NCBI GenBank assembly: GCA_038217285.1
Contig: JBBQPO010000034.1
Coordinates: forward strand, 1 to 30,990
DNA length: 30,990 nucleotides
From: Chthonomonadales bacterium
GTDB lineage: Bacteria; Armatimonadota; Chthonomonadetes; Chthonomonadales; Chthonomonadaceae
Reading direction: 5' to 3'
Positions 7,013-30,990 of this stretch are shown here, piece by piece (the stretch's first letter is position 1; every line of letters begins with the position of its first letter). The notes beneath the pieces were generated by a model. The model was not told the origin of the DNA and searched no databases. It saw nothing but the letters and a program-made list of their open reading frames with translations. Position numbers and translations under genes: made by a program.

Positions 7013-7018
7013 TCTATC

Positions 7019-7047: not shown

Positions 7048-7093
7048 GAGTTCAAAGCGATCCCCCCGTTTTTCACGCCACGGAGTTGCAAAC

Positions 7094-12568: not shown

Positions 12569-13801
12569 ATGCCCGCCCGGAGCCCTTTCCATAGTCATGT
12601 CGATACGACCCGTACCCGCTGCGATCTGCGCGCCGCCGTCAAAGAGGTGCGACAAGCGGCACGGCCCAACATTTTTTCGCTCCGCTCCGGCGTCTCCCTA
12701 CTGGTAGCCCTGGCGGCGGGAGGCATGGTCGCCTGGCGCAGCGTGGAAGCTGGACTGCAGACGGATCGTGCCGCCGCCCCGCCCATACCCATTACGCCGC
12801 GCCCGCCCACTCCCACCTATATGGAGAGCGCCCGCCCGTCCGACAAGGCCCACAAACCGCTGGACGAGCGCGCGGCCGAGCGCCCCAAAAGCACCGAGAC
12901 AACTGCCAAGGCCACGGGCATCATGGCGCTGGGGAAAGAGTTGCTGGCGCGCTACGGGGCGGACGAGTGCGGGATGCGGGCGCAGTCCATCGCCTTCGTC
13001 GGCGTCATGTCGTTGATTCCGGTGCTGCTGTTCGCGCTGGCCGCCGTGGGCTTTTTCGTTCCTCCGGAACAGGCGACGCGCCTGATCCACGATCTGGTTG
13101 CGCATATCGTTCCCGGCGAACAGGCGATGAAAGCGGCCGATCATGTCATCCAGCAGACCGGTCTGGCGAAATCGGCGCAGGAGATCATGAAGGCGCGCGG
13201 CTGGGTGCTTGGGATCGGTATTATCTCGCTGCTCTGGGCGGGTATAGGGCTCATCAACAACGCGATGCCTTCGATGAATGCCGCGTGGGAAGTGAAAGAG
13301 ACACGTGGTTTCGTCCGGATAAAGTTGATCGGTCTGGGCGTCTTTTTGGGAAGTGGCCTGCTGTTTCTGCTATCGCTGCTGCCCTCTGCCGGCCCCGACT
13401 TCATTCAGAACCTGCATATACCGGCGCTGGGCCTGCCGAAGCATCTCCCGTTCTTGCTGGCGCTGCTGATGCAGATCGTATTCGAGGCGCTGGCGCTGGC
13501 CGTCAACGTCGCGCTGTTTGTCTTCCTCTACCGCATGCTGCCCAATACAAAGGTCACCTGGCGGTCCGCGCTCTTCGGAGGCGTTGTCATCGCGGTGCTG
13601 TGGGAGATCGCCAAGAAGGCCTTCACAATCTATCTGGCGCACTTCGGCAACTTCAACAAGCTGTACGGCGCGTTCGGGGGTCTGGTGCTGCTCGTCACCT
13701 GGATTCTCTACTCCTGCATGATTCTGCTGGGAGGCGCCATTCTCTGCAAGATGTACCACGAACACGTCGAAGAGGGCGGTGTGGCAAAGAAAGCATCGTA
13801 A
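12569..13801 (+). CDS. YihY/virulence factor BrkB family membrane protein with N-terminal extension
   Basis: AQSIAF...SLIP, MNAAW, LYRMLPN...WRSALFGG, LYGAFGGLVLLVTWILYS motifs; multiple TM helices. Confidence 0.9.
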   Translation: MPARSPFHSHVDTTRTRCDLRAAVKEVRQAARPNIFSLRSGVSLLVALAAGGMVAWRSVEAGLQTDRAAAPPIPITPRPPTPTYMESARPSDKAHKPLDERAAERPKSTETTAKATGIMALGKELLARYGADECGMRAQSIAFVGVMSLIPVLLFALAAVGFFVPPEQATRLIHDLVAHIVPGEQAMKAADHVIQQTGLAKSAQEIMKARGWVLGIGIISLLWAGIGLINNAMPSMNAAWEVKETRGFVRIKLIGLGVFLGSGLLFLLSLLPSAGPDFIQNLHIPALGLPKHLPFLLALLMQIVFEALALAVNVALFVFLYRMLPNTKVTWRSALFGGVVIAVLWEIAKKAFTIYLAHFGNFNKLYGAFGGLVLLVTWILYSCMILLGGAILCKMYHEHVEEGGVAKKAS

Positions 13802-13826
13802 GCCGTCGGTTGGGAGGCCGCGTACA

Positions 13827-15119
13827 ATGAAACCCCTGCCCGCGCAAAATCTGCTGGTTGCACATAACGGCAATGCGCGGGTCACCATCGGCCTTGACGC
13901 TCCGGAGACGCTGCGACTGCTCTCCGATACGCGCAGCCTCACCTGCCCCGGCTGCGCCGGAACCGTGATCCTGCATGCCGGAACCGTGCGCGCCCATCAT
14001 TTCGCCCACCTGCCGGGAGCGGTCTGTACGCTGCCCACGTCGGAGCCGGAAACGGAAGAGCATCGCGCCGGGAAGCTTCTTATCGCCGCATGGCTGCGCG
14101 CCTGCCTGCCCGACGCCGACGTTCTGATCGAAGCCTTTCTCCCCGCGACAGGCCAGCGCGCCGATGTGCTGGCCGTGCTGGCAGATCGCAGTCGGATCGC
14201 GCTGGAGTATCAGTGCGCCCACCTGACGGCGCGCGAGTGGCGACGGCGGCATCGGCAGTACCGGGAAGCGGGCATCCGCGATCTCTGGCTGCTCGGCGGA
14301 TCACGGCTCATTCCGGCAGCCGCAAGTCAGACAGCCGTTCCCGAAGGTCGAGAACCAGGCGCAAAGAATTCGGGGAAAGCGGTCGTCCTGCGAACCACGG
14401 AGTTGGAACGCACGCTGCTCTGGGACGGCGCGCCCCTGCTGTTTCTGGACGCGTCCGGGGAACGCAGAAAGGCGGGAACGCTGGCCCGCTTCCGCCCGAA
14501 CGAGGACGCGCAGGCCCACCGCCCCCAGGGCCACCTCGTGACCCGCGCGCTGCTGGAACTGCCCTTTCCTCTGCACCTGCTGGACTGGCCCACACGCGCT
14601 CATCCCGACGCTCCTCTCACCGCCCCGACATCGACACCGTCTGCCCCAGACACCCCTTCGTCGTCCGCTTCCGACTTCTGGCTCTGGCAGTGGCTCGGGC
14701 AGCGCTTCCAGGTGACACCGGAAACCCTGCCCGCATTTTTCGGCCTCTCCCTCACCGGCGAAGAGGCGTTCTCCTGCCGAAGCGCCGCATGGCAAGCCGG
14801 AATCTACTATCGTTTCATCCATCAACGCATAGGAGCACGCTGGTGGCTCGGCGAGGTCGAAACCTGGGTGCGCGGCTTTATTCCGCTTGCACAACCGCTT
14901 CGCCTTTCCCGTCTCCGGGCCGCCCTCGCGGAATATCAGGAGGCCCTGGCGGCCACAGGGATGCTCTCCCTGCCGATGGGCTATGGCCGCTCCAATGCCC
15001 GCATCACCGCCGATCTCACCACCCTCCCCACCCCTCCCGACCGCGCCGAAGTCCTCCGCCTCGTTCGCTACCGCCGCACCCTCGCCCGCGAAAACGCCGC
15101 CGCCTACGGAAAAAGCTAA
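13827..15119 (+). CDS. Competence protein CoiA-like nuclease
   Basis: LTCPGC...HHFAH...C zinc module, ETEEHRAGK, QRADVL and IALEYQC nuclease motifs; GGAGG RBS before the ATG at 13827. Confidence 0.8.
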   Translation: MKPLPAQNLLVAHNGNARVTIGLDAPETLRLLSDTRSLTCPGCAGTVILHAGTVRAHHFAHLPGAVCTLPTSEPETEEHRAGKLLIAAWLRACLPDADVLIEAFLPATGQRADVLAVLADRSRIALEYQCAHLTAREWRRRHRQYREAGIRDLWLLGGSRLIPAAASQTAVPEGREPGAKNSGKAVVLRTTELERTLLWDGAPLLFLDASGERRKAGTLARFRPNEDAQAHRPQGHLVTRALLELPFPLHLLDWPTRAHPDAPLTAPTSTPSAPDTPSSSASDFWLWQWLGQRFQVTPETLPAFFGLSLTGEEAFSCRSAAWQAGIYYRFIHQRIGARWWLGEVETWVRGFIPLAQPLRLSRLRAALAEYQEALAATGMLSLPMGYGRSNARITADLTTLPTPPDRAEVLRLVRYRRTLARENAAAYGKS

Positions 15120-17999: not shown

Positions 18000-19790
18000 A
18001 TGCGGTTAACACGACGCTCTCTGCTATTAGGGCTGACAGGTGGGCTGACGGCGGGGGCGGGTTGCCAACGCGAATCGCACACTCCGCCGCCCGCCCGCCC
18101 CTCGACGACTGTCGTCGATCCGGCCCGCGCCGCTGCCGCCCCGCAACTCACCCGCTACCCCCTTCGTTTTTCAGATGTCAGCGCTTCCGCAGGCATTCAG
18201 TGGAAATACGCGAATGGCGCAACCGGCAAACACTACTTTGTAGAGACGACCGGCGGTGGGGTCGCCTTCTTCGATTACAATAACGACGGCTTCCTGGATA
18301 TCTTCGCGCTTCAGAGCGGGCCACTTCCAGGCGCGACTGGAGAGGGGCTGAAGTTCAGCCAGCGCAGTGTTTTGTACCGCAACAACGGCAACGGCGCGTT
18401 CAGCGACGTGACTTCCGAGGCGAAGCTCGATGGCGACCTGGGCTACGGACAGGGCGTCTCGGTCGCCGACTACGACAACGACGGCTGGGCCGACCTCTAT
18501 ATCACCGCCTACGGCGGCAATCGCCTCCTGCACAATAACGGGGACGGCACGTTTACGGATGTGACCCAGAAAGCGGGTCTGGCCGACCTGGCTGGGGAGA
18601 TGACCTGGCCGCTGAGCGCCGCGTGGGCCGACTACGATAACGATGGCCATCTCGATCTCTTCGTCTGCCACTACTGTCGCTGGGCGCCCGCTGCGAACAA
18701 GGACTGTCCCAACGCCGACGGCAAGCCCTCTTACTGTCGCCCCCAGGTCTATGAGCCCGGCCACTGCCGTCTCTACCACAACAATGGGGACGGCACCTTC
18801 ACCGATGTCACTCAGAAATCCGGGATCGGACGCCTGCTCGGCAAGAGTATGAGCGCCGCCTGGTTCGATTACGATGACGACGGCTGGATGGACCTCTTTG
18901 TGACCAACGACACGATGCCCAATTTCCTGCTCCACAACAATCGGAACGGCACCTTCACCGATCGGGCGGTCGCGGCGGGCGCGGCAGTCGGGGCGCATGG
19001 CGAGCCGCTCTCCGGCATGGGCATCGCGGTCGGCGACTACGACAACAACGGCTTTGAAGATCTGATGGACGTCAACTTCTCCGGCGAACCGAAATCTCTC
19101 TACCTCAACACGGGGCAGGGTTATTTTACAGACTCCGCCTATGCCTCCGGCCTGGCCAGCATCAATCTGCTCTATCTCGGCTTCGGACTCGAGTCTTTCG
19201 ACTACGATCTGGACGGAAACAAAGATATTATCGTCGGCAACGGCCACGTCCTCGACCGCATGGATGTCCAGACGAACGGGTCCTCATATGCACAGAGCCA
19301 ACAGTTGCTGCGTAACCAGGGGAAGGGGATCTTTCAAGAGGACACGCGTTCTCTGGGCGACCTCGCGCTGCCCCGTGTCACGCGCGGACTGGCCGTCGGT
19401 GACTACGATAACGACGGCGATTGGGATGTGGTCATGGTGTCCCAGGCCGGCCCGCTGCAGCTCTACAGAAACGATGGCGGCAATCAGAACCACTGGATCA
19501 CCCTGCGCCTCGAGGGCGTCGAGAGCAACCGGGACGCGATCGGAGCCAAGGTCGTCATCCAGGCAGGCAAGAAGACACAGACTCAGTGGGTGCGTGGAGG
19601 GTCGAGTTACTGTTCGCACAGCGATATCCGCGTTACCTTCGGCCTCGGAGACGAGACGCGTATCGACAAGATCACCGTCCGATGGCCGCGCGGCCGCCGC
19701 CAGGAGTTCGGCGCCCTTCCAGCCAACCAGTTCTACTGGCTCCGGGAGGGCCAGTCCCCGGTTCGTGACCCGCGCGTGGCGTCCAAATAG
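18000..19790 (+). CDS. CRTAC1-family FG-GAP/VCBS repeat protein with C-terminal ASPIC/UnbV domain; Tat lipoprotein
   Basis: TRRSLL twin-arginine signal with AGC lipobox; repeated DYDNDG..D motifs; C-terminal SNRDAIGAKV...GSSYCS...FGLG...VRWP. Confidence 0.9.
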   Translation: MRLTRRSLLLGLTGGLTAGAGCQRESHTPPPARPSTTVVDPARAAAAPQLTRYPLRFSDVSASAGIQWKYANGATGKHYFVETTGGGVAFFDYNNDGFLDIFALQSGPLPGATGEGLKFSQRSVLYRNNGNGAFSDVTSEAKLDGDLGYGQGVSVADYDNDGWADLYITAYGGNRLLHNNGDGTFTDVTQKAGLADLAGEMTWPLSAAWADYDNDGHLDLFVCHYCRWAPAANKDCPNADGKPSYCRPQVYEPGHCRLYHNNGDGTFTDVTQKSGIGRLLGKSMSAAWFDYDDDGWMDLFVTNDTMPNFLLHNNRNGTFTDRAVAAGAAVGAHGEPLSGMGIAVGDYDNNGFEDLMDVNFSGEPKSLYLNTGQGYFTDSAYASGLASINLLYLGFGLESFDYDLDGNKDIIVGNGHVLDRMDVQTNGSSYAQSQQLLRNQGKGIFQEDTRSLGDLALPRVTRGLAVGDYDNDGDWDVVMVSQAGPLQLYRNDGGNQNHWITLRLEGVESNRDAIGAKVVIQAGKKTQTQWVRGGSSYCSHSDIRVTFGLGDETRIDKITVRWPRGRRQEFGALPANQFYWLREGQSPVRDPRVASK

Positions 19791-20049
19791 TCCCGCTTCT
19801 GAACCCGATGCGTAGTGACATCTACTTTCTCCTCCTGCATCTGCTCCCTGTTTCATGACACTACCGCCATGCTCTTTCGGCGGAGCAGGAATCGCAGAGG
19901 CGTATTGGGAACTTACAGTCTGCCAATACAGCCTGCGAGTTCATCCGGAGGGCTGGTACGGGATCGACAGGTTTACCGCACGGTAGGGTTGTTGATCGTA
20001 TTCCGATAAGCCGTTCTACCTATCTACCCTGACCCCTTTGGAAAGACCC

Positions 20050-22524
20050 ATGACCCCTGCGCTGACGTGCACGTTTTGTGAGAATGCTCTGGAAGGCGAC
20101 GACCGATACTGTGTTCGGTGCGGCCAGACGACCGCACAAATTCGTTGGTCCTCCTCCCTGGACTCGCGACCGGGGACAGGCGCCGTCGTTTTGCCTCCCG
20201 ATGGCACGTTCTATCTGGTCGCCCACAATAGCGGCAGCGACGCGGTTAATGTCCGCGTCGATGTCACACGCTTGCACGGGCTGCGGCTGGTGGGGAAGAC
20301 AGCAGCGCGCGTGGATCGGCAGCAGTCGGTCGCCTTTGCGCTGCAGCCGCTGCCGCAAGAGAGCCTGAGCGGTTTTATCACGCTGGTGAGTGACGATGGC
20401 CCTCGTCCGCATCCCTCGGCGCTCGCACCGCAGAGCCCCTGGTGGGAGTTCCACGCGGAGCGTGAGCAGCGACTGCGCGCCAATGAGCTTGTGCGCGTCG
20501 TGGTGGACCGCTGGATCGTCGGCAGCGCCACTCTCCTCTTTCCCCCAGGCGTGCGCCGACAGTATGTGCGCCTCTGGAACGATGCCGACCAGGTGCGCAG
20601 CTTCGACTCCGATGTCCCGACGGGCTATCGCCTCACCAATGTCACCCTCCCCATCGACAGGAAAGCGCCCGAGGTCTTTGCACACGGCACCATTGAGATC
20701 GTCGCGGAAGCGCTGCCGGAACGGGTCGCGAAAGGCGCGGATCAGGAGTGGTCAGCCGGCCCCGAGGCCGAGCCGATACTTCTGCGGCGACTGGAGTCCG
20801 CAGTCGATGAAGCGGGCGCCGATGTTGTGATCGCCATCGACTTCGGAACGCGCAACACCGGCGTCCGGGTGCGCTGGCGGCATGGCCTGGTGGCGGGCAA
20901 GCCCCGGGGAACCGTAGACGTCATCGGCGACCGCGACGGCAAGGCCCGCTTTCCCACCGAGATGGCCATGCATCGCAATGGGCGAAGTTTCCGCTGGGGA
21001 TCGGAAGTGTCCCGAGGAATGCTGGCCCAGGATGAGATCCGTATCGGTAACCTGAAGACCCTGCTGCGCGTCAATGAGGAGCCGTTCCGCCGGGAGAACC
21101 CGCACTGGTCGAACGCCTATCTCCTGGAGCGCTACTTCGAGCAGCTCTTTCTCCGCATCGACGACTATTTCAAAGCCGCCGACGCCTCCCTCTCCCGCCT
21201 CAACCTGAATGTACGCTACGTCTTGACGCGCCCCGTGCTCGACGCCAATGAAGGCGATACGCAGGGGAAAACGTATGAGCTCGCCTTGAAAACCGCTATG
21301 GAGCGCTGCGGAGTCGCGGAGACACAGATCACCTTCGTCCCCGAACCCGTCGCTGCCGCCTACGGCATCGCCAAACGGCGCGCGCAGGAGCTTCTGGCTA
21401 TGGGTGAAGGCACTCCCATCGCCGTCATCGACGCCGGGGGCGGCACGACCGATATCGCGCTCGCCTATGTCAGCTTACGGGAGGGCCGGGTGGCGCTCGA
21501 CATTCGCGGCACCTACGCGCTCAATCTGGATGCGGCGAACCCCGCGCTGCCTGCCGTCGAGCGTTTTGGCGCGAGCGACCGGCGCGAGTTCGGCGGAGAC
21601 GTGCTCGATTATGCGCTGACCCACCGCCTGCTGACCGATGCCGCCGGCCTGCTCGAAACGGAAGGGCGCGCGGTGCCGAACCATCTGGAAGTCTCCGCAA
21701 CGCCTCTCTCCGAAGAAGAGAAGCAGCGCCGCGAGATCGAGCTTGTCCTCTCTTGCCGAACCATGAAAGAGGCGTTTGCCCATGTCTCCACCCATCACCT
21801 GACCCGCACCGCCAACCAGCAGGCGCGGGAGCATGAGCACTTCATCTTCGCGAATCGACCCGACTACGAAGGAATCTATCTGGAGCAGTCTCTGTTTGGC
21901 GACCACCTGCTTGCTCCTATTCTGCTCGCGCCGGTGCAGGAGCTTCGGGAACGCATGGAGCAGGACAGCTTTGAAGCGCAGGGCATTCGGCCCTCTCGCG
22001 TAAAGCACGTTTTCTATGTCGGCGGCACCAACATCGAGTCCTACCTGCGCCAGCAGTTTCAGGAAGCCTTTCCCAACTCGCCGCGCCTCCAGGCGGAAGG
22101 CCCCGAGGGCGTTGAGGAACGTATCGCGGAACGTCTGAATGCGGTAGTGGAAGGCGCGGTCTGGTGTGATGAAGCGTTGTTCGCAGCCTCGCCTCTGACA
22201 TGGACCCTGGAAGTGGATCAGGTAGAAAAGCGGTGCCTGCAGCAGGGCGATCCCCTCCCGCCGGAATCCACCCCCGGCTTGCACCTGTTTCCGATTCGGT
22301 TGGAGCCGTTCCAGGAGCTGGAAGCAACGCTCTCCGCGACTGGGAGCGGACTGTCGGAAACTCTCGCCGTGGCGCGCGGATTCTACCGCAACACGACGGA
22401 AACCTTGCAGGAGGGAACGCTGCAGGTGCGCATAAGCCGCGAGAAGGGCATCACCGCCACTCTCCTTATCAACAGCCGCAGCTACGAGCAGTGGCGTGTC
22501 GCTCTGGTGGAGGCCGGTCCATGA
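20050..22524 (+). CDS. Divergent Hsp70/actin-fold ATPase with N-terminal zinc ribbon and beta-rich domain
   Basis: CTFC...CVRCG; IAIDFGTRNT (phosphate 1), VPEPVAAA, VIDAGGGTTDI (phosphate 2), FGGDVLD, VFYVGG (adenosine motif), AVVEGA. Confidence 0.85.
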   Translation: MTPALTCTFCENALEGDDRYCVRCGQTTAQIRWSSSLDSRPGTGAVVLPPDGTFYLVAHNSGSDAVNVRVDVTRLHGLRLVGKTAARVDRQQSVAFALQPLPQESLSGFITLVSDDGPRPHPSALAPQSPWWEFHAEREQRLRANELVRVVVDRWIVGSATLLFPPGVRRQYVRLWNDADQVRSFDSDVPTGYRLTNVTLPIDRKAPEVFAHGTIEIVAEALPERVAKGADQEWSAGPEAEPILLRRLESAVDEAGADVVIAIDFGTRNTGVRVRWRHGLVAGKPRGTVDVIGDRDGKARFPTEMAMHRNGRSFRWGSEVSRGMLAQDEIRIGNLKTLLRVNEEPFRRENPHWSNAYLLERYFEQLFLRIDDYFKAADASLSRLNLNVRYVLTRPVLDANEGDTQGKTYELALKTAMERCGVAETQITFVPEPVAAAYGIAKRRAQELLAMGEGTPIAVIDAGGGTTDIALAYVSLREGRVALDIRGTYALNLDAANPALPAVERFGASDRREFGGDVLDYALTHRLLTDAAGLLETEGRAVPNHLEVSATPLSEEEKQRREIELVLSCRTMKEAFAHVSTHHLTRTANQQAREHEHFIFANRPDYEGIYLEQSLFGDHLLAPILLAPVQELRERMEQDSFEAQGIRPSRVKHVFYVGGTNIESYLRQQFQEAFPNSPRLQAEGPEGVEERIAERLNAVVEGAVWCDEALFAASPLTWTLEVDQVEKRCLQQGDPLPPESTPGLHLFPIRLEPFQELEATLSATGSGLSETLAVARGFYRNTTETLQEGTLQVRISREKGITATLLINSRSYEQWRVALVEAGP

Positions 22525-24053
22525 GTCAAGAAGAGTCCTCCTGGGAGGAAGAGGCTGCCGCGCCGCCCGCGACAGAAATCGACGGCAGGACCACCTCTGC
22601 GGAAATCGTAGTGGAGCCCATTTCAGACGCTTCCGTTCCGCTGCCGGAAGAGACGGAGAGTTCCGAAGAGGAGACCGGCATCTCCCAAACCCTCGCCTAT
22701 CTCACCGGAGAGGCGGAGGCTGCCCGTCAAAAGCTGGACGCCCAGAGTCAGCGCCTCGACGGGATCGAGCGGGAGATCCAGGATGTCGCCGGGGCGCTGC
22801 TAAGCCAGCTTGCTAGCCTGGAAACGCAGGGACAAGAGGTTGCCAAAGCTATTGCAGGATACGCTGTGCAGAGTGTCGGCACGCTGACAGCCTGCCTTGA
22901 AACGGCCGAGAAGGCGCGACGGGAGGCCGAACAGCGGGCTACGGAGGCCGAAGCGCAGGTTGCGCGGGTGGTAATACGGCAGGACGCGTACCAACAGGCG
23001 TGGAATTCCGCACCTCTGACACTGCGTCTGAAGTTCGTGCGCGAACTCCTCCCGGACAGCCATGCCTTACAGAATGTTCTGAAGGAAGCGGCGGCGCTGG
23101 AAGAGTTGCGGCGGCGCGGGCACGACCTCGAAAATTGGTTCACCAACTATCCTGCGCTGTTCGCCGACGCGGCCCAGGCGCTTCTCTCCGGAAGCGGCGG
23201 AAATGCCCTGGCACATGAGGAGTTAGAGACAGACCCGGCAAACACGCTGGCCGCGCAGGCGTTGCACGAAGCGCAGACGGCGCTCGAAACGACGCTTCAG
23301 GCTCTCGGCATTACCTGGATCACCCCTGCGCTCGGCGATGCCATACGGGCCGACTACGAAGTCGTCGGCGATGAGAGCTCCCCACAACGCGACGGCTGTG
23401 TGGCGCGTTTGCGACGCCGAGGATTCCGTTTCCAGGGGCGGCTGGCCCTGCCCGCGCAAGTCCTGCGCTCCGCCCCATACCGTCCGACCGCGCCGACGGT
23501 GACAGACCAGATCAGAGCGGCAGAGAGTGTGCCGCCTCTCGCTCCCGTACCGCAGACTGCCGAGGCAAGCGACCTGCCGGACTGGCTGCGCATGCTGAGC
23601 CAGCGCACGTTCGGATGCGATCTGCCCGTCGTCGCCTCGCTGACGGCGCAGGTGATCGCCCTGAAGGATCTGCCGGTACGCCTCGCTGCTGTGCCTGCGG
23701 AGACGGAGGCTCGCAAGCTGTTAAGCGACGCTTTGCAGCCGCTGCTGCCGTTACTGGGCCTCCGCTATGCGGATGGGCTATCCGACATCCCGGAAGTGTG
23801 GGGGGCGGCGTTTCTCGATGTGCGCGAGCCGCTGCTGGCATGGCTCGCCGACAAAATCGCCATCTCCCTCGTGGCTCCTGCGCGAGGTGACCGCTTCGAT
23901 CCGCAAACGATGGAGGCGCTGGAGACGCGCCGAACCGTCCATGCGAAAGAGGACGAAACCGTCGCGAAACTGGAGCGTATCGGACTGTTGTGGCGTGAGC
24001 GTCCGGTTATCCGCGCGCAGGTGGTACGCTATTCGATAGGAGGAGCCCCATGA
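22521..24053 (+). CDS. Coiled-coil protein with two GrpE-like domains
   Basis: ATGA overlap with the upstream stop, plus GGAGG RBS; acidic N-terminus and coiled coil; LGITWITPALGD...VARLRRRGFRFQGRLALPAQV and ISLVAPARGDRFDPQTMEA...TVAKLERIGLLWRERPVIRAQV both match the GrpE head pattern. Confidence 0.7.
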   Translation: MSQEESSWEEEAAAPPATEIDGRTTSAEIVVEPISDASVPLPEETESSEEETGISQTLAYLTGEAEAARQKLDAQSQRLDGIEREIQDVAGALLSQLASLETQGQEVAKAIAGYAVQSVGTLTACLETAEKARREAEQRATEAEAQVARVVIRQDAYQQAWNSAPLTLRLKFVRELLPDSHALQNVLKEAAALEELRRRGHDLENWFTNYPALFADAAQALLSGSGGNALAHEELETDPANTLAAQALHEAQTALETTLQALGITWITPALGDAIRADYEVVGDESSPQRDGCVARLRRRGFRFQGRLALPAQVLRSAPYRPTAPTVTDQIRAAESVPPLAPVPQTAEASDLPDWLRMLSQRTFGCDLPVVASLTAQVIALKDLPVRLAAVPAETEARKLLSDALQPLLPLLGLRYADGLSDIPEVWGAAFLDVREPLLAWLADKIAISLVAPARGDRFDPQTMEALETRRTVHAKEDETVAKLERIGLLWRERPVIRAQVVRYSIGGAP

Positions 24054-25489
24054 GCGCCCCCGTCATTACCTGCCTATGCGGGGAGCCGCTGCGGCCAGAT
24101 GCCAATTTTTGTGCACGGTGCGGCCGCGAGATACGCCAAAACTGCCCCGTCTGCTTCGAAGAACGTCGGCTTATCGCCAGAAGTGACCCTGCGGCGTCTC
24201 CCTGGTGTGCCAGCCGGGGGGGGCTCTTGCTGGCCTGCAAACGCTGTGGGCGCTGGCTTCCTGCCGACACCCGGCAGTGTCCCGATCCGGGCTGTCGCGG
24301 CAGCGTTCGCCTCACCTGGCCCGCCTCGACCGGGCGGGCGGTGGATGGCACGGGCATGACGGGATCGTGGACATGGCCTGCAAGCTGGGACCATCAGAAC
24401 CCGAACTACAGAGCGCCCCGACAGGAGAGCTGGAGCAGCGAAACTCCCGTGCATGCGGCCTTTGTCGCCCACGGACGGCTCTACGTCTGGGCCGAAACCA
24501 CGCTGCTTGCGCCGGAAGGTCCGGCGGGCGGGCCGCTCGCCGAAGCGTCGGGCCGTGGGCCGAGGTCGCCATGGCGCTGCTGGCTCAAACTCGACGGCGA
24601 ACCCGATCCTCGGCTGTCTATAGGGCAGCGTGTATCGCTCGTCGGCGGAGGAGCGATCCTGGCCGCACAGAACGACTTCCTGCTGGCCGGTCTCTACCCG
24701 CACCGCGCCGAGGATGTCGTTCCGCTCAATCTGGGAACACCGCTGGCGCAGGCCGCGTCGGAAGGCTGGTGGGTCGGCTGGAGCCGGCAATCGGGTCGCC
24801 CCACCCTCTGCCTGGCCCCTATTCCCGCGAACTGGCGCAGTCTGGACATCCGGCAGATCACGGATATACCGCCGCAAGCGGTTCCTCGGGAGAACAGTCC
24901 TCTGGCGCTCTGCGACGGAAGGGCCTCCTGGATCGGCGCAGAGGGGACTTTGTGGCAACTCGACTGCCTTTCTCTCGATCTGCAGCCGCTGCATGAGAGA
25001 CTTCCCGGCCTTCAGCGCGTCTGGTGTAAGCAGGATGGAACGCATACGATTCGCGTCACCGGGGAAGGGCTGCGCGTCGGACTCGATGCGGTGGTGCGCG
25101 ACGGGACGATACGGGAGACGCCGGCAGGCGCAGGGCCGTTCCGCGACCTGTTTGCCGCGCCTGCGCTGATCGCCGTCGTCGGCGAAACGGTGACGACCCT
25201 CGACCCGCAGACAGGCGACACGCTGGGCAGCGGGAGATACAGCGGGCAGTGGATCACCGGCGCCCTGACCGAGGCCCCGCTCGCTGCCGCCGACCGCGAG
25301 CCGCGCCTCCTGATGCTGACCTACGATATGGACGCCGGGAACCTCTCCGCGCTGCACCCCTCGTCCGGCGGAGAGGAACCGGTCTGGCGCGCGCCGGGAG
25401 TGCGTCCTATGAATCTGATCGTAGCGGGCGAAAGCCTCTACGTAGTGCATGAGCGCGGCGTAACACGCATACAGGAGGCCCTGCCTTGA
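24050..25489 (+). CDS. Multi-zinc-ribbon protein with putative beta-propeller C-terminal region
   Basis: CLCG...FCARCG, CPVC...WCASRG, CKRCG...CPDPGCRG; Trp/Gly-rich short strands ending LYVVHERGV; ATGA overlap with AGGAGG RBS. Confidence 0.7.
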   Translation: MSAPVITCLCGEPLRPDANFCARCGREIRQNCPVCFEERRLIARSDPAASPWCASRGGLLLACKRCGRWLPADTRQCPDPGCRGSVRLTWPASTGRAVDGTGMTGSWTWPASWDHQNPNYRAPRQESWSSETPVHAAFVAHGRLYVWAETTLLAPEGPAGGPLAEASGRGPRSPWRCWLKLDGEPDPRLSIGQRVSLVGGGAILAAQNDFLLAGLYPHRAEDVVPLNLGTPLAQAASEGWWVGWSRQSGRPTLCLAPIPANWRSLDIRQITDIPPQAVPRENSPLALCDGRASWIGAEGTLWQLDCLSLDLQPLHERLPGLQRVWCKQDGTHTIRVTGEGLRVGLDAVVRDGTIRETPAGAGPFRDLFAAPALIAVVGETVTTLDPQTGDTLGSGRYSGQWITGALTEAPLAAADREPRLLMLTYDMDAGNLSALHPSSGGEEPVWRAPGVRPMNLIVAGESLYVVHERGVTRIQEALP

Positions 25490-26964
25490 AGATAAGTGCT
25501 CGATGGTCGCATCTCCGCCCGGCCCGCCGCGCAGGAGGGATCACTCTGCTGGCGCTGCTGCTCTGCGTCGGAGCGGTCGTTTCCGGCTGGGCGCAGGACG
25601 TCAATCCAAAGGACTACGCGCGCATCACGCAGGTTCCGCGCGCCGAAATGGACGCGTGGCTGCGGCAGGAAGTGACCAAAAGCGGAGGGAAGTGGGACGT
25701 GGATCGCTACCACTTCTACATCGGTTTTTCCACCGGGCATTTCGGCCAGGATCCGGTCCACGCGATCGCGATGCGGCGGGTGGCCTTCAGCCTGATGAAC
25801 AACTCGCTCGCGGTCGGCGACCGCATCACCCCGATCGCCTGGGAGATGAAGACCTGGGACGTCGGCCCCTCCGTCGCCCTGACCGACGACCCGGCCAGTC
25901 GGGCGGAGTTCGTTGATCGCGTGCCCTATGCGCCCCACACCGGCAGCCAGGGCGGGCACGACATCGAGCGCGCGCTCTACGAAACGATCACGCAGGCGAT
26001 CCCAGCCGACGAAACTCAGAGCGCCATCGTGCTCCTGCTGACCAACAGCAACGCCAGCCAGTCGCCGACCGGGGAGCGGGCGACCCTCTTCGGAGCGGAC
26101 AATCCGCAGTTGATACGCGCGCTCCAGGCCGGAGGCTATCGTCTGCCACTGGTGCGCAAGGAGTTTCGAATGCAGGCCGGGACGCTGCCTGTCACCGTCG
26201 CCCTCACGGCCCTGTTCCCCACCAGGTTGGTCTCTCTGCCGGGCGCGCCGACGACCCCACGCTATCCGACCTTCGCCCGCGAAACCTGGCAGCCTGCGGC
26301 GGATACGCCTGCCGCCACCGACGCCCTGCCCAACCCGACGCGCCCTGCGTCTGCGGGGCAGGCGCGCACCGGCACGGCAGGCTCCGCCGGCGCGGCCTCC
26401 GACACCTCGAACCCTCCCCACTCCATTCCCGGCTGGGTCTGGATCCTGGCGGCGCTGGCGCTGCTGGTCATCGTAGCGCTGATCGCTCTGCACTACAGCA
26501 AGCGCAAACTTGCCGTATCGGGCGCACCTGTCGCCAAAACGCCGCCTGCCGTCCCCCTAGCAGCTTCCGTTCCCGGCAGCCTCACCGTCACGGTCGGCCC
26601 CACGGAGCAGGCGCTGGACTCCCTGACCAAGCTGACGACGGCCAGCGCCTGGATGCTCCTGCGCGAGGCGGATGGCAAGGTGATCCTGGCCGATGTGCCA
26701 GCGCCATTGGGGAGTGTCCCTAGCACGCCTGCCATTCCCACGCCGACCGTCCTGGCGAAATTCGCCTTCGATGCGAAGCGGGCGCTGCGAGTCGATGCCG
26801 AGCTCGGCGCGCAGTTTATGAAACTGCAGGGGACCGCCGCAGACCAGTGCAACCCGCGCCTGCTGCTCATTGAACCCGGCAAAAAGGTGTTCTGCCGGGT
26901 TCTGCCGCCGGATACCGCCGTGGAGACACGGATTGAGATCAACTACAATACGCCGAAAGGATAA
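25486..26964 (+). CDS. Exported degenerate vWA-like domain, Pro/Ala/Thr linker, TM helix and cytoplasmic beta-rich domain
   Basis: Signal peptide (…GWA-Q); HFYIGFSTGH, GGHDIERAL and IVLLLTN fall at vWA motif positions; TM WVWILAALALLVIVALIAL; TTGA overlap with AGGAGG RBS. Confidence 0.6.
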   Translation: MKISARWSHLRPARRAGGITLLALLLCVGAVVSGWAQDVNPKDYARITQVPRAEMDAWLRQEVTKSGGKWDVDRYHFYIGFSTGHFGQDPVHAIAMRRVAFSLMNNSLAVGDRITPIAWEMKTWDVGPSVALTDDPASRAEFVDRVPYAPHTGSQGGHDIERALYETITQAIPADETQSAIVLLLTNSNASQSPTGERATLFGADNPQLIRALQAGGYRLPLVRKEFRMQAGTLPVTVALTALFPTRLVSLPGAPTTPRYPTFARETWQPAADTPAATDALPNPTRPASAGQARTGTAGSAGAASDTSNPPHSIPGWVWILAALALLVIVALIALHYSKRKLAVSGAPVAKTPPAVPLAASVPGSLTVTVGPTEQALDSLTKLTTASAWMLLREADGKVILADVPAPLGSVPSTPAIPTPTVLAKFAFDAKRALRVDAELGAQFMKLQGTAADQCNPRLLLIEPGKKVFCRVLPPDTAVETRIEINYNTPKG

Positions 26965-29900
26965 TGCGCTCCATGTCTGAAACGCTTTCGATCCGAAAAA
27001 CGCTGATATTGGGATTAGGCACGACGGGCAAGGAGGTCGCGGAGGCCGTCGCCGAACATCTGACCTGGCAGTTCGGCGGGTTTGAAAAGGCAGCCTGGGT
27101 GCGCCTGCTGGTGCTGGAGACCGAACAGCCCAACTCACCGCTGGGCGACCGTGTGCTGCGCGGCGGCATCAGTCGGGAAGAGTACGCCGCCTATCTCAAC
27201 GCGCCCCGGACAGCAGGCGCGGCCTTCGACTTTTTCCAGTGGCAGGACGGGCAGAGCCTCAAGGCCATCGACAACCCTTCCGCCGGAGCGGGCAACCTGC
27301 GCATGCTGGGGCGGCTCTGCCTCTTTCACTCCTCCACCTCCTCCGAAGCCTCGACCTACGAGCGGCTGAAGCGGCGCGTCATGAGCGATCTCTCCGCGCT
27401 GAACCAGCTCACGCCGCAAGCCATCGCCGACCAGTTGGGCCGCGCCGACGTGAACGTGGACATGCACTCCGACACCGTCGTCTACGTGGTCGGAACCCTC
27501 TGCGGCGGCACCTGCAGCGGCGGAGCCGCCGATATGGGCTATCTGCTGCGCGAATGGGCCGGGAACGGGATCGACTGTCAGGCCATCTTCACGCTGCCGC
27601 ACCCGCAGCTTGCGGGCGCGAAGGCCGCGCGCTACAAGAAAAACGCCTACTACGCGCTCAAAGAGCTGAACCACTATCAACTCGACAGCACCGCCTGGCT
27701 GCAGAAGCTGCCCGGCAACGACAAACAGTCGCGCCGCGCCGAGAAGCCCTATGTCATTCTGCGTGTTCTTATGCCGGGCGGTTCGGATGGGGCCGATGTG
27801 CGGCGGCTCAACGTCATGATCGGGCAGTATCTCGCCGCAGCGGTCGGGCCTGCGGGCGGCGCCATCGCCGCGCGGGACGTCGATGCCAAAGGCAATATGG
27901 AGACGGCGGACAGCGTCGGCTTCATGCGCCCCCTGTTCAGCACGATGGGCATGGCCGCGCTGGAGTATCCCGGCGAGCACATCCTGCGGGCGACGACGCT
28001 GCGACTCATGGCGGGCGCGCTGGAGCACTGGTGCCGACACTCCCTCACCCCGGAGCGGATCGACGAGGCCCTGCGCCTGCTCGGCGGCAACGACTTCGAG
28101 GCGCAGTTGCAGCGCCTCACCGAAAATGCGACCGATAAGCTCGGCGTCGCGGTCTTCCAGAAGATGACTCAGCCGGACGCGAACGGCCAGCCGCCGAAGG
28201 TCGAGCAGATACGGCAACTGCTGCGTGATGTCGATGGACGCCTCACCGCCACCGATCTGCCGCGCGGCGACGTGAACGACGCCCTGCCGACCCTGCTGCA
28301 CGTCATGGAAAACAACCAGAAGACGTTCCTGACCCGCATCGACACCGACATTCAGCAGTTCGTGACGCGCGCTCTGTTCGATCTCGACGGTGGGCCAGGC
28401 TTTGTGTCCGCCGTCCTGGAAGAGCAGATGCGGCGCATGGAGGCCTGGGCCCGGGAGGCGCAGGACAACCTCCAGGAGTACCGGCAGGACTCCAAATCGC
28501 TGCGAGAGACGCTGGACGAGCAGATCGCCGAAGTCGAGCGCATCCAGAACAGCCACATGCTGTTCGGGAAAAAAGAGAAGCTGAAGCATGGCTGGGAGGG
28601 CGTGACACAGAGCGCCCACTCCTATCTCCAGACGGAGCTGCGCACTCAGGCAACCACGCACCTGCAGCGCCGAGAGATGATCGGCCAACTGCTGGAGAAG
28701 TACCGTCAGAGCACCGCCCTCCTGATGCGCCGCCTCAAGACGATGCAGTCCGCCTTCACGCAGACGGCCGTGGGCTGGAAAGACACCTGGCACGAGATGG
28801 CGCAGGATCAGCCGCCCGTCAACGGCAAGGTCTATTTCGAGGCGGAGCCTCCCGCACCGCGTGGGACCATCACGGAGGAGTACTACAACCTGCTGCGGCA
28901 GCGCTCCTGGCCTGGTGAGACGGCGACCGGGTGGGACGACGCACAGAAAGAGGAGGCGGCCCAGCGGGACGTCCTGGAGGCGCTCCAACTGCTCATGCAG
29001 GATCTGCGCCTACCGGACGGGCAGAGCGCGTTCGACTTCAAGCCGGGACGGGGCAGTGCGCAGGACAGCATTCCGCCGGACCTGCTGCAGACGCTCGAAG
29101 CCCGTTCCCGCGCCTTCTTCGAGCCGCTGCGCGACCATGTCCATATCGCCGACAAAGCGGCGGCGGCCGATCTCGATACGGTCATCCAGCTCAGCGCGCC
29201 CCGACTCGGCATTCACGGCGCACAGGTCAGTCCGCAGTTGACCGGCGCACGCGCCGTGACGCCGCAGCCGCAGAATCTGGCGTTTCTCGACCTGAGCCGC
29301 AAGGATGCGCGCACCCTGCAGATGATCGCGAAGATCGAAACCAACGTCGCGCTGGCCCGCGACGGCAAGATCACCGACAGCCACGATCCCTTCCGCCTCC
29401 TGATCGTTCAGGAGCGGCATGGCTTCACCTTCGGGCAGATGGAGGGCGTCGTCAGCAGCCATGCCTACGACCTCGCCGCCCTGCAGAGCGCCGAAACGGC
29501 GGCGAACGACTTTCATTTCTGGCACACGCGCCGCGACGTCAACTGGATCGACCCGCTCGTGCCGCCGCGCCGGGTCGAGGAGACGGAGGAGTGGTGGCTC
29601 CAGGTGATTCTGCTGGGCCGCCCCGCCGACAACGTGTTCAAATGGACACCCGCGAACCACAAAGAGATACCGGGTGAGGGCTGGTACCAGATCGCAGGCG
29701 GTGAGTTCCGGGTCTTCTATCCGGCGGGCATACCGGGCGTGACGGACACGGAGGCGCGTATTCCGCTGGATTTCAACGATGCGATCATGCAGTTGCTATC
29801 GGTGAACTACGGGACGATGCGGCAGGGGCTAAAAGTGCATTTGAGCGGCTACCGGCACGAGGTGAAGGAGCCGCGCCTGGTGAGCGCCCTGGCCGACGGC

Positions 29901-30218
29901 CTGAAAGCCCTGCCGAACCTCGGCGTGAAGGGGCTGGACAAGGGGCAGGCCGACCGCATTCTGCGCCGCGCCTATGGGCGCGACACGGCGTTGGCGGACG
30001 CCTTCTTCGTCTATGAGACCGAGGCCAGCAAAGACTCCGCGAAGCTGTTCTCGCACCTGTTCAAAATGGAGGGCGACCAGATCCCCGAGTCGAGCGGCGA
30101 GTACACGGCCAGCGCCTACTACTGCCCGCACTGCAATCACCTGCTGAGCGACAACGTGGAGGCGCTGCGCGCGGCCCACTTCCTCTGCCCTGCCTGCGGG
30201 GAAAGGTACTGGCCGTAG
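26964..30218 (+). CDS. Divergent tubulin/FtsZ-superfamily GTPase (Tubulin_2/FtsZl-like) with long helical region and C-terminal zinc ribbon
   Basis: LILGLGTTG, GAGNLRMLGRL, signature-like VGTLCGGTCSG, NAYYALKELNHY; coiled-coil middle; CPHC...CPACG at the C-terminus; TAATG overlap. Confidence 0.85.
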   Translation: MRSMSETLSIRKTLILGLGTTGKEVAEAVAEHLTWQFGGFEKAAWVRLLVLETEQPNSPLGDRVLRGGISREEYAAYLNAPRTAGAAFDFFQWQDGQSLKAIDNPSAGAGNLRMLGRLCLFHSSTSSEASTYERLKRRVMSDLSALNQLTPQAIADQLGRADVNVDMHSDTVVYVVGTLCGGTCSGGAADMGYLLREWAGNGIDCQAIFTLPHPQLAGAKAARYKKNAYYALKELNHYQLDSTAWLQKLPGNDKQSRRAEKPYVILRVLMPGGSDGADVRRLNVMIGQYLAAAVGPAGGAIAARDVDAKGNMETADSVGFMRPLFSTMGMAALEYPGEHILRATTLRLMAGALEHWCRHSLTPERIDEALRLLGGNDFEAQLQRLTENATDKLGVAVFQKMTQPDANGQPPKVEQIRQLLRDVDGRLTATDLPRGDVNDALPTLLHVMENNQKTFLTRIDTDIQQFVTRALFDLDGGPGFVSAVLEEQMRRMEAWAREAQDNLQEYRQDSKSLRETLDEQIAEVERIQNSHMLFGKKEKLKHGWEGVTQSAHSYLQTELRTQATTHLQRREMIGQLLEKYRQSTALLMRRLKTMQSAFTQTAVGWKDTWHEMAQDQPPVNGKVYFEAEPPAPRGTITEEYYNLLRQRSWPGETATGWDDAQKEEAAQRDVLEALQLLMQDLRLPDGQSAFDFKPGRGSAQDSIPPDLLQTLEARSRAFFEPLRDHVHIADKAAAADLDTVIQLSAPRLGIHGAQVSPQLTGARAVTPQPQNLAFLDLSRKDARTLQMIAKIETNVALARDGKITDSHDPFRLLIVQERHGFTFGQMEGVVSSHAYDLAALQSAETAANDFHFWHTRRDVNWIDPLVPPRRVEETEEWWLQVILLGRPADNVFKWTPANHKEIPGEGWYQIAGGEFRVFYPAGIPGVTDTEARIPLDFNDAIMQLLSVNYGTMRQGLKVHLSGYRHEVKEPRLVSALADGLKALPNLGVKGLDKGQADRILRRAYGRDTALADAFFVYETEASKDSAKLFSHLFKMEGDQIPESSGEYTASAYYCPHCNHLLSDNVEALRAAHFLCPACGERYWP

Positions 30219-30990
30219 ATGCCGATCTCTCCCCGCGCGAAGCTGCCTCTGCTCTTCTCGGCACTGATGGGCCTCTGCGTGCTTGGCGCGGAGGGCTATG
30301 TCCTGACCGGCCTGCTCCGCCAGCATGCCGATGGATGGCAAACCCTCGTCGCGGCCCTCTTTGCACTCGTCGTCTTCACGGTCTGGTTGTGGGGTTTCTA
30401 CCGCTCCTGGCGCGTCTTGAGCCAATATAGCGTGGAAGAGGCGGCGCTGCCCCAGGCCACGGCCGCGCTGGAGGCGATGGCGCATGGCATCGAGGCCGGC
30501 GACTGGAAACGGCAGAGCTTCACGGACGCCGCACCACTGCTCGACCGGCGTCTGACGCAGATGTGGAGAGGGCTGCAGCGGGGCGCACCGCTGCTCGCGG
30601 GGGATAGGGTCGAGAGCGAAGACCGCCCTCTCCCCGGCCCGGAGCGCGAAATCCGGACCTACAGGGACATCGCGTTGAACGTCGGGATCGCCGGAGCCTT
30701 CGTCTCCATTCTCATCACGTTAGGGCAGCCACAGGGTCTGACGGCCGACGCGCTGCTGACCCATGCTGGCCCCGGTATTGCGAGCGGACTGGCCGCTATC
30801 ATCGCTGGAATCGGGCTGCGCCTCTGTCATCGCGCCATACAGGACGAGCAGGACGCCCTCGCCGGGCATGTAGACGAGGCCGTCTCCGAATTTTTCGTGG
30901 CCCATCTGCCGAAGACCGTGACGAGTCCGAACGAGCGTATGGTCCTGGCGACCACGGCGTTGGCGCAGAGCGCTAAAGACGATTTGGCGG
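30219..30990 (+). CDS. MotA/TolQ/ExbB (ZorA-like) proton-channel-type membrane protein, 3' truncated by the window end
   Basis: ATG directly after the TAG at 30218; open to the window end (MPISPRAKLPLLFSALMGL...); two N-terminal TMs, a soluble loop, then TM pair IALNVGIAGAFVSILITL and GPGIASGLAAIIAGIGL, followed by a helical tail. Confidence 0.6.
   Translation, partial: MPISPRAKLPLLFSALMGLCVLGAEGYVLTGLLRQHADGWQTLVAALFALVVFTVWLWGFYRSWRVLSQYSVEEAALPQATAALEAMAHGIEAGDWKRQSFTDAAPLLDRRLTQMWRGLQRGAPLLAGDRVESEDRPLPGPEREIRTYRDIALNVGIAGAFVSILITLGQPQGLTADALLTHAGPGIASGLAAIIAGIGLRLCHRAIQDEQDALAGHVDEAVSEFFVAHLPKTVTSPNERMVLATTALAQSAKDDLA

Follow-up and report, generated by a model that had tools for sequence, protein, structure and literature searches.

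What does a tubulin-like protein of about a thousand residues do in a bacterium whose canonical division gene ftsZ lies elsewhere in the genome? The question is raised by gene E of contig JBBQPO010000034.1 from a Chthonomonadales bacterium (Armatimonadota; assembly GCA_038217285.1). The stretch analysed, called the window here, is the whole contig of 30,990 nucleotides, and the gene downstream of E is therefore cut at position 30990. An earlier note, made from the letters of this DNA, had described gene E as a tubulin/FtsZ-like protein with a variant GTP-binding signature that is not the division FtsZ. We followed up this description with sequence profiles, structure prediction and comparison of loci from other genomes, which are designated by L numbers. 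The best explanation of the results, which we regard as rather probable, is that gene E encodes the GTP-gated, cytoplasmic module of an accessory sensor or motor system spanning the cell envelope.

Gene E belongs to the FtsZl1 branch of the tubulin/FtsZ superfamily

The ATG at 26973 (MSETLS...), with AAAGGA 11-16 nucleotides (nt) 5' of it, is the start of gene E both in the database gene call and in homologues, and gives a protein of 1081 amino acids (aa). When the protein was compared with Pfam, a check that the earlier note had proposed, PF13809 (Tubulin_2) was matched at 123.9 bits (cut-off 27; E 1.2e-35) over aa 14-352 and over profile positions 1-354 of 356. PF13809 was also present in all 70 homologues retrieved, the nearest of which come from records named Chthonomonadaceae or Chthonomonadales. 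PF00091 was not matched by the gene E protein itself in the Pfam search; among 31 diverse N-terminal domains of the family, PF13809 was matched in every one and PF00091 weakly in eight (best E 0.0099). PF13809 corresponds to the FtsZl1 family described by Makarova & Koonin in 2010 (PMC2875224, cited here for parts of its main text and supplement).

The loops GLGTTG and GAGNLR and the Cys-containing signature at about 27492-27521 all lie where the earlier note had placed them (Table 1). In an alignment of 32 sequences, consisting of the query and 31 of the 70 retrieved homologues (partial and near-duplicate rows omitted; 23-85% identity), G17, G19, T21, G22, G108, R113, G177, L179, C180, G181, G182, T183, S185 and G186 were invariant, and position 184 was Cys or Gly. 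In the hhalign register, C180 and C184 occupy the first and fifth Gly positions of GGGTG(S/T)G, and the T4 loop reads CGGTCSG. Among 31 N-terminal domains of greater diversity, drawn from genome loci, at least 90% had kept C180. Since PF13809 is matched and these residues are invariant across the aligned homologues, the motifs of gene E are conserved and do not reflect chance. The signature read GTLCGGTCSG in 52 and GTLCGGTGSG in 13 of 71 fetched homologues, counts that are biased by the word-based search and do not represent the whole family. Additional file 2 of PMC2875224 gives the T4 string VVGTLCGGTCSG in two Deinococcus proteins and strings of the AGGTGSG or SGGTASG type in other members. 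The Cys variant singled out in the earlier note is thus real, but it is not new: it is a subfamily trait that was printed in 2010 for the two Deinococcus proteins and left undiscussed there. The terminal Zn ribbon was likewise found, as a CxxC...CxxC pattern at aa 1054-1078 with only weak hits to Zn-ribbon families. In the 32-sequence alignment C1054 and C1075 were invariant and the second Cys of each pair was missing in distant members; two CxxC motifs were present within the last 45 aa in 37 of the 71 fetched homologues. These results demonstrate that, within the tubulin/FtsZ superfamily, gene E belongs to the FtsZl1 branch (Pfam Tubulin_2), in a subfamily that includes DR_0538 of Deinococcus radiodurans.

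A canonical ftsZ was found on another contig of the genome (C337), where it was matched by TIGR00065 at 419 bits, over the cut-off, directly 3' of ftsA (411 bits). Gene E was not matched by TIGR00065, and the gene on C337 was the sole match in the genome. In the phylum, ftsZ was present in 26 of 26 sampled genomes. With this ftsA-ftsZ pair in place, gene E is not the division FtsZ of the cell, as the earlier note had held.

The family is large. The profile of its N-terminal domain, searched against 1.84 billion proteins, recovered 7,895 representatives of 50%-identity clusters at E<=1e-3, and 1,392 when the threshold was E<=1e-30. At E<=1e-20, members were found in 54 of the 151 genomes of the phylum sample and in none of eight other genomes of the same taxonomic family, one of which, from the same genus, is 98% complete. 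The flanks of the gene E loci were different in every locus examined. Gene E is accessory and patchily distributed. A literature search on the FtsZl1/Tubulin_2 family and on the Deinococcus locus returned no experimental paper, in agreement with the remark in the earlier note that little experimental work exists, and a later phylogenetic paper (PMC9871819, cited for the part that deals with this group) left the Tubulin_2 group aside as too divergent.

Predicted fold of the gene E protein

A structure of the gene E protein was predicted by AlphaFold2 with the 32-sequence alignment as input (mean predicted local distance difference test score, pLDDT, 88.2; predicted template-modelling score 0.75). 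When the model was compared with the PDB by Foldseek, 21 chains were found at E<=1e-3, and all 50 matches listed belonged to the tubulin/FtsZ superfamily. A wide search by VIA-align against 48,161 representative chains, run without Foldseek preselection, placed CetZ, TubZ, FtsZ, BtubA, gamma-tubulin, Asgard and Odin tubulins and PhuZ at ranks 1-17, all of them members of the superfamily, with Z 24.3 to 13.5; the next row had Z 8.8, and only 32 chains reached Z 8. Z scores were 24.3-24.4 for CetZ, 20.9-21.0 for TubZ, 20.4-21.7 for FtsZ, 20.2-20.3 for BtubA and gamma-tubulin, and 16.6-16.8 for PhuZ. The alignments covered 85-95% of the targets (303 of 360 residues in CetZ, 277 of 306 in B. subtilis FtsZ, 326-335 of about 410-445 in tubulins) at a sequence identity of 10-16%. 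The tubulin fold that the earlier note had assigned to residues 1-340 is upheld by these high-scoring chains together with the match of 123.9 bits to PF13809.

The model consists of an alpha/beta domain (7-357), long helices between 444 and 614 (444-470, 477-528, 536-569 and 572-614) and a helical C-terminal part. This matches the FtsZl1 architecture given in PMC2875224, namely an FtsZ-like domain at the N terminus, a coiled coil of extended length and a C-terminal part made up mostly of helices. In that source, no similarity to the T6-H7/T7 region or to the C-terminal domain of FtsZ was identifiable in FtsZl1. In our structural alignments, the aligned range of the model began at about residue 10 and its end shifted with the length of the target: FtsZ chains ending after strand S10 took it to 820-822, the longer FtsZ of M. 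jannaschii and Aquifex to 832-835, CetZ and TubZ to 848-851, and tubulins to 865-869. Judged by these ranges, alignments to whole tubulin/FtsZ chains skip the insertion; Spiroplasma FtsZ, a chain in which the alignment is limited to the N-terminal domain (residues 10-167 of the chain), placed 155 residues onto model residues 10-273. Since the alignments take in nearly whole chains and their end point tracks the target length, the activation domain of the tubulin fold appears to be present.

We therefore predict from the model a complete two-domain tubulin/FtsZ fold that is built jointly from the first 357 residues and from residues ~766-868 and into which a helical arm of ~400 aa is inserted, most likely between the equivalents of helix H9 and strand S8. 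An element map, read from the secondary-structure string and not from a residue-level alignment, would put H7 at 298-314, T7 at 315-324, S7 at 325-334 and H9 at 337-357 before the insertion, and S8 at 768-775, H10 at 782-794 and S9/S10 at 811-821 after it. Conservation agrees with residues ~766-868 belonging to the core of the fold. Residues 805-861 were the best-conserved part of the C-terminal half among the 32 sequences, with D808 (31/32), R811 (32/32), D849 (31/32), R856, D858 and W861 (32/32) invariant or nearly so, and in the subfamily E817 and F821 were likewise fully or almost fully conserved. The helical and unknown domains of ~700 aa described in the earlier note thus do include a helical and coiled-coil stretch, but residues ~766-868 within them complete the tubulin fold in the model. 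A predicted complete tubulin fold with a large insertion, where the 2010 paper saw no similarity in the C-terminal domain, is what the model adds. The domain at aa ~869-1051 was barely tested by the fold searches, in which no row was confined to it.

Several points weigh against this split fold. It is drawn from one predicted model and from the first and last aligned residues only, and the Foldseek alignments had 324-384 columns in all listed rows but one (649), with no 400-residue gap inside. No invariant acidic residue was found among the 32 sequences in the inferred T7 loop (aa 313-324), a loop assigned without a residue-level structural alignment; position 316 within it was Asp or Glu in 24 of 32. 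Profile comparison by hhalign with 18 FtsZ sequences of the phylum gave E 0.11 for the N-terminal alignment and E 0.037 for the full length, at probabilities below 2%; the longer alignment ordered T1, S2, T3, T4, S5 and H5 as in FtsZ. HMMER searches of PDB sequences with the gene E protein and with its 32-sequence profile returned no tubulin and no FtsZ. Sequence profiles alone leave the kinship of gene E with FtsZ unproven; structure prediction is much clearer.

Compared with CetZ, FtsZ, TubZ/PhuZ and the tubulins, gene E has the T1, T3 and T4 loops in the same order and the same two-domain fold in the prediction. It differs from them in the ~400-aa insertion and in about 215 extra C-terminal residues with the Zn ribbon. 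It differs from them, furthermore, in the two signature Gly residues that are Cys, in the T7 loop, in which no invariant acid was found, and in being encoded beside genes for membrane and chaperone-like proteins and not beside genes for division or plasmid partition.

Table 1 Features of gene E and its operon in the window, with the basis of each assignment.
Feature	Positions	Strand	Basis and remarks
Gene E (FtsZl1 / Tubulin_2 protein)	26964..30218	+	1084-codon open frame; likely start 26973, giving 1081 aa
T1-type loop GLGTTG of E, aa 17-22	27012..27029	+	G17, G19, T21, G22 invariant; aligns with FtsZ GVGGGG (hhalign)
T3-type loop GAGNLR of E, aa 107-112	27282..27299	+	G108, A109, R113 invariant; aligns with FtsZ GAGG (hhalign)
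T4 signature GTLCGGTCSG of E, aa 177-186	27492..27521	+	Sequence, alignments, hhalign register
Helical/coiled-coil insertion of E, aa ~358-765 (predicted)	28035..29258	+	Model secondary structure; boundaries inferred
Distal tubulin-fold core of E, aa ~766-868 (predicted)	29259..29567	+	Strands 768-775, 811-821; helices 782-794, 840-846 (model)
C-terminal mostly helical domain of E, aa ~869-1051 (predicted)	29568..30116	+	Model secondary structure
Terminal Zn ribbon of E (CPHC ... CPAC), aa 1052-1081	30117..30206	+	Zn-ribbon family matches weak
Gene A, N-terminal Zn ribbon and Hsp70/DnaK-like ATPase	20038..22524	+	828-aa open reading frame from TTG 20038; ATG 20050 is the likelier start
Gene B, acidic/coiled-coil, GrpE-like C-terminal domain	22521..24053	+	510 aa from ATG 22521; overlaps the A stop by 4 nt
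Gene C, three N-terminal Cys clusters (Zn ribbons) and Trp-rich beta region	24050..25489	+	PF12773 DZR, PF13240, PF13248 at aa 10-78
Gene D, anchor helix, predicted periplasmic vWA fold, transmembrane helix and cytoplasmic beta-sandwich	25486..26964	+	Transmembrane scan, model, VIA-align
Gene F, MotA/ExbB/ZorA-like membrane protein	30219..30989	+	First 257 aa, cut by contig end; transmembrane scan

The operon of gene E and its conservation

Genes A-F lie on the same strand. A/B, B/C and C/D overlap by 4 nt, D and E share TAATG, and the stop of E is directly followed by the ATG of F; the six genes are a translationally coupled operon. A promoter and terminator scan of 19000-30990 gave nothing above shuffled sequence that bears on the operon.

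The neighbour that accompanies gene E most regularly is gene D. Its protein has a signal or anchor helix at aa 16-34, a periplasmic domain at aa ~64-258, a transmembrane (TM) helix at aa 317-335 and a beta-sandwich at aa ~360-490. When its model (pLDDT 78.8) was compared with the 48,161 chains by VIA-align, vWA/I-domains headed the list (Z 10.7-7.9), led by the VWA domain of CLCA1 (Z 10.7 over 139 aa; root-mean-square deviation 3.2) and followed by a bacterial vWA domain (Z 9.5), and we predict a vWA fold for the periplasmic domain. Foldseek returned nothing at E<=1e-3 for this model. An FHA-like nature of the cytoplasmic domain is a lead only (Foldseek probability 0.95-0.96 at E 0.03-0.06; one Pfam match at E 0.19). 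A complex prediction for residues 1-850 of E with residues 345-492 of D reached a median score of 0.28 against a mark of 0.32.

In the comparison of loci, D and A were counted by tblastn with the window's own proteins, and the hidden Markov models applied to the loci were partly built from loci on which they were then run. Of 18 close loci (E 31-86% identical), 14 have gene D directly 5' of E; two of the four misses have less than 100 nt of upstream sequence, and the other two (L009 and L010) have room and no partner. Gene D also lies 5' of E in 20 of 28 distant loci, from Deinococcus, Meiothermus, Hydrogenedentota, Abditibacteria and others, and three of the misses there have less than 400 nt upstream. 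These results demonstrate that the pairing of D and E is conserved. Gene A was found by tblastn in nine close and four distant loci; an A-like gene stands upstream, too, in three loci from Abditibacteria and one from Fimbriimonadales. The genes A, B and C stand in colinear order upstream of E in L001, L003, L006, L007, L013, L015, L017 and L018, among which E of L017 is just 31% identical. The link between tubulin and Hsp70 recurs with another gene order in two very distant loci, from Deltaproteobacteria and Poribacteria records, where an Hsp70-like gene lies directly 3' of the FtsZl1 gene (L047:9130-12003 and L049:13128-16754).

Individual loci showed further arrangements. L009, L010 and L012 hold full-length E orthologues (49-53% identity) without partner genes within the locus, and in L010 the genes across 8 kb 5' of E lie on the opposite strand; the partners may be located elsewhere in those genomes. 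In L013 the operon is split between C and D by several kb (5517-8391) with genes for an acetyltransferase resembling PglD, an aminotransferase of the DegT type and a glycosyltransferase of the GT2 family; a comparable gap separates C from D in L011. Both A and E are fragmented in L008:4051-13286, E into three overlapping frames, which suggests frameshifts or assembly errors. A 1517-aa open reading frame (ORF) 5' of gene B in L016 was considered as gene A and rejected, being unrelated to A and possibly spurious.

In Deinococcus radiodurans, Additional file 5 of PMC2875224 lists the order DR_0540 (hypothetical), DR_0539, DR_0538 (FtsZl1), DR_0537 (MotA/TolQ/ExbB) and DR_0536 (OmpA). The locus of gene E resembles it both in the FtsZl1 protein, which shares PF13809, the string VVGTLCGGTCSG and a length of about 1070-1084 aa, and in the order of a D-like gene, FtsZl1 and a MotA/TolQ/ExbB-like gene, followed in orthologous loci by an OmpA-like gene (DR_0540/DR_0538/DR_0537/DR_0536). 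In the Deinococcus loci fetched, the FtsZl1 proteins are about 24-26% identical to gene E over the full length. Unlike these loci, the operon of the window has three extra upstream genes, encoding the Zn-ribbon Hsp70-like, the GrpE-like and the Zn-ribbon/beta proteins. According to PMC2875224, FtsZl1 operons contain genes for vWA proteins, GTPases, OmpA-like proteins and kinases; its main text, as cited here, is without Hsp70, GrpE and MotA, and its supplement has MotA and OmpA for Deinococcus and one DnaK-like gene in Magnetospirillum. In a Deinococcus marmoris record (L024:15442-20737), the genes that come after the MotB-like one encode a protein of 865 aa with LRV repeats and a 901-aa fusion of a Ser/Thr kinase to SH3 and beta-helix domains, an order that the same supplement lists for D. 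radiodurans.

The three genes upstream of D encode putative regulators with Zn ribbons or chaperone-like domains. A profile of gene A from 11 orthologues matched the DnaK/Hsp70 nucleotide-binding domain in the PDB at E 3.3e-10, and DxG (phosphate-1), EPxAA, DxGGGTxD (phosphate-2) and VGG (adenosine) motifs were aligned with that domain. Invariant residues are D268, G270, T271, E436, D465, G467, G469, T470, T471, G662 and G663, and C11, C14, C25 and C28 are nearly so. The window copy of A fell under the thresholds of Pfam and NCBIfam and was assigned to no Pfam family; the orthologue of L017 weakly matched PF00012 together with Zn-ribbon families. PF01025 (GrpE) was matched by gene B at 32.3 bits in the window (cut-off 25.8) and at 58.8 bits (E 7e-16) in the L017 orthologue, and the profile of B gave weak GrpE matches to the PDB (E 0.15-0.5) in the same C-terminal stretch. 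In gene C, C8, C10, C21, C24, C32, C35, C53, C63, C66, C77 and C82 are invariant, and its profile matched Zn ribbons only in the PDB. No P-loop or Walker A motif was seen on reading gene C, and language-model features pointed to BamB/PQQ beta-propellers (0.92; 165 shared features), as a lead only. Zn ribbons thus occur in three proteins of the operon (window 20038-30218): at the N terminus of A, in the three N-terminal clusters of C and at the C terminus of E.

Downstream of E, gene F has TM segments at 11-29, 42-60 and 151-169, with three to four in all. Its full-length orthologues are 572-776 aa long and carry a long coiled-coil or helical tail, which weakly matched the PADLOC model of ZorA (E 1e-5 to 2e-6). 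The Deinococcus counterpart of F matched PF01618 (MotA_ExbB; E 0.0035) and scored 33.7 bits with NCBIfam ZorA_2, whose cut-off is 100. Gene G, which encodes a MotB/OmpA-like protein and lies beyond the window, was found 3' of F in L001, L002, L008, L014, L015 and L017. In L001, L015 and L017 it matched PF00691, at 32 bits in two and at 24 bits, under the cut-off, in one. It matched PADLOC ZorB1 at E 1e-16 to 1e-20 and the MotD/MotB/MotS models at E 1e-17 to 1e-22, under NCBIfam cut-offs. Each of the 17 G-like proteins examined had retained an Asp where its TM helix begins, which we take to correspond to the channel Asp of MotB/TolR/ExbD. In the seven-gene operon, no effector domain of the nuclease, protease or NAD type was found.

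The same genome holds a second, very distant FtsZl1 system on contig C196 (L083:2540-10665). The order there is a vWA protein (754 aa; PF13519 at 37.9 bits), a Tubulin_2 protein, a 220-aa ORF and an HD-CE domain protein (PF24391), and a fragment of a DDE transposase lies beside the system at the start of the contig. The Tubulin_2 protein has 1082 aa, the signature GCQFGGTGSG and a score of 70.4 bits, and is 25% identical to gene E over about 200 aa.

Elsewhere in the window, a 743-aa ORF at 1395-3626, 17 kb 5' of the operon, has weak vWA matches under Pfam cut-offs (PF00092 at 22.8 bits). A nucleoside diphosphate kinase is encoded at 6218-6964, with its kinase domain at aa 112-245 of 248 behind an N-terminal extension of about 110 aa. 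A 446-aa ORF with CoiA N-terminal and nuclease-like domains (13779-15119) follows a gene for a BrkB-family membrane protein, and a DUF1559/N_methyl ORF was also matched by Pfam. The planctomycete origin that this ORF could suggest was rejected in view of the records from which the nearest homologues of gene E come.

Possible role of the system and competing explanations

Because the nucleotide loops T1, T3 and T4 are invariant, the gene E protein is inferred to bind GTP, and self-association that depends on the nucleotide is probable. Since no invariant T7-type acidic residue was found, activation of hydrolysis in the classical manner of FtsZ is not established. Gene order suggests that the protein is the cytoplasmic module of an envelope-spanning complex. 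It would be tied to the membrane through D, with its predicted periplasmic vWA fold, single TM helix and cytoplasmic beta-sandwich, and in many loci it would be coupled to an ion-driven, peptidoglycan-anchored unit of F and G. The Hsp70-like ATPase (A), the GrpE-like exchange factor (B) and the Zn-ribbon/beta protein (C) may control assembly or disassembly. Such a system would sense or act on the envelope and answer with a GTP-gated assembly in the cytoplasm.

In its logic, this arrangement most likely comes closest to Zorya-type systems and to vWA/tubulin 'conflict' systems. ZorA of Zorya has a long cytoplasmic tail with a role in the system. Like Zorya, the operon encodes a MotA/ExbB-like protein with a long coiled-coil tail (F) and is continued in orthologous loci by a protein (G) that resembles MotB, carries an OmpA peptidoglycan-binding domain and has a conserved TM Asp. 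Unlike Zorya, it has no ZorC, ZorD or ZorE-type effector among the A-E proteins of the window as judged by PADLOC, and G matches the flagellar MotB/MotD/MotS models about equally well. The F/G pair would work like a MotAB/ZorAB unit; since PADLOC found no Zor effector among these proteins, we do not count the system as a member of Zorya. The conflict systems of Kaur, Burroughs, Iyer & Aravind (eLife 2020; PMC7159879, cited here in part) are GTPase-centred and built around a DO-GTPase and GAP1; their tubulin+vWA, HSP70+GrpE and kinase themes are described as non-overlapping and mainly from Firmicutes and Actinobacteria. The operon shares with some of them a tubulin-family protein fused to coiled-coil or helical regions, a membrane protein with an extracellular vWA domain and frequent Zn ribbons, and with other neighbourhoods the combination of HSP70 and GrpE. 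The operon differs in joining both themes in one Armatimonadota locus together with a MotAB-like pair; MotA, MotB, ExbB and TolQ are not mentioned in the cited parts of PMC7159879. Among the six ORFs of the operon, Pfam detected no P-loop GTPase family, in a search to which no dedicated DO-GTPase or GAP1 model was applied.

A number of observations speak against an envelope-spanning system of this kind. In L009 and L010, gene E stands without any partner, and F and G were not found 3' of E in L003, L011, L013, L016 and L018 despite room for them. Gene D showed no vWA signal in Pfam (25 orthologues) or in a sequence-profile search of the PDB, and its metal-ion-dependent adhesion site is not intact, DxSxS being replaced by F-S-T-G-H. 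The matches of F to ZorA lie mostly in coiled-coil tails and under NCBIfam cut-offs. The flanks gave no clear sign of a defence island. When the 86 ORFs flanking 15 loci at up to 5 kb were compared with Pfam, defence-type neighbours were present at four of the loci, a count that has no baseline; they are BrxC/D (L031), WYL with Cas6 (L020), Uma2 (L022) and HNH (L008), and the other flanking genes are mostly housekeeping.

The strongest competitor is a housekeeping machine for membrane remodelling or vesicle formation, without a conflict role, in which FtsZl1 polymers are anchored through vWA and OmpA/MotA-like proteins; membrane remodelling was proposed for FtsZl1 in the main text of PMC2875224. 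Most of the partners are indeed membrane proteins, with two hydrophobic helices in D, three to four in F and a peptidoglycan binder in G, and both the mostly housekeeping flanks, which differ between loci, and the lack of a nuclease, protease or NAD-type effector domain in the seven genes would suit such a machine. However, the family is patchily distributed (54/151 genomes of the phylum, 0/8 others of the same family), and the genome carries a second, very different FtsZl1 system beside an HD-CE protein and a transposase. Since an accessory system fits this distribution and the second system better than a core cell-biological one does, we regard a housekeeping machine as rather unlikely, though it deserves serious thought. 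A role in surveillance or conflict, taken on its own terms, is possible without being something to count on; we favour it over housekeeping remodelling because of the patchy distribution, the variable flanks, the effector-like partner of the second system and the parallels in design.

Gene E might instead be a non-polymerising switch or scaffold, gated by nucleotide, that uses its fold in the manner of a signalling GTPase, with the arm mediating fixed oligomers. The T7 data are consistent with this, both in the lack of an invariant acidic residue in the predicted equivalent loop and in the 2010 paper, where T6-H7/T7 were not identifiable in the part cited here, and an insertion of ~400 aa in the C-terminal domain might hinder head-to-tail contacts. 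On the other hand, the model has a complete two-domain fold closest to the filament-forming CetZ, TubZ and FtsZ, and 24 of the 32 sequences have an acidic residue at position 316, so that a non-polymerising switch seems distinctly improbable to us. That gene E is an alternative division or cell-shape protein, a second FtsZ or a CetZ-like one as the CetZ matches at Z 24 could suggest, is hardly credible beside the canonical ftsA-ftsZ pair, the absence of its family from the eight other genomes sampled of its own family, and an operon of membrane, motor and chaperone-like genes in place of division or wall genes.

We thus return to gene E as the cytoplasmic module of an accessory envelope system. 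The most specific form of this proposal, which we consider unlikely as a whole, is that the complete tubulin with its arm would form a GTP-dependent polymer or lattice on the inner face of the membrane; the trigger would come through the periplasmic vWA sensor and a ZorAB/MotAB-like motor driven by protons, and the Hsp70/GrpE pair would reset the assembly. If it were true, an unrecognised tubulin-based system for envelope surveillance or defence against phages would exist in thousands of bacterial lineages. The FtsZl1 family is large and has been known since 2010, yet literature searches found no experimental paper on it. The predicted fold gives construct boundaries and a place to seek the T7 loop, and Deinococcus radiodurans, which carries the core genes, makes the proposal testable. 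The set of partners, with the vWA fold, a MotAB/ZorAB-like pair with its Asp and Hsp70/GrpE, points to a machine for signalling from envelope to cytoplasm or for transducing force. If the system is a defence or envelope-stress device, this deep branch of the tubulin superfamily would receive its first function.

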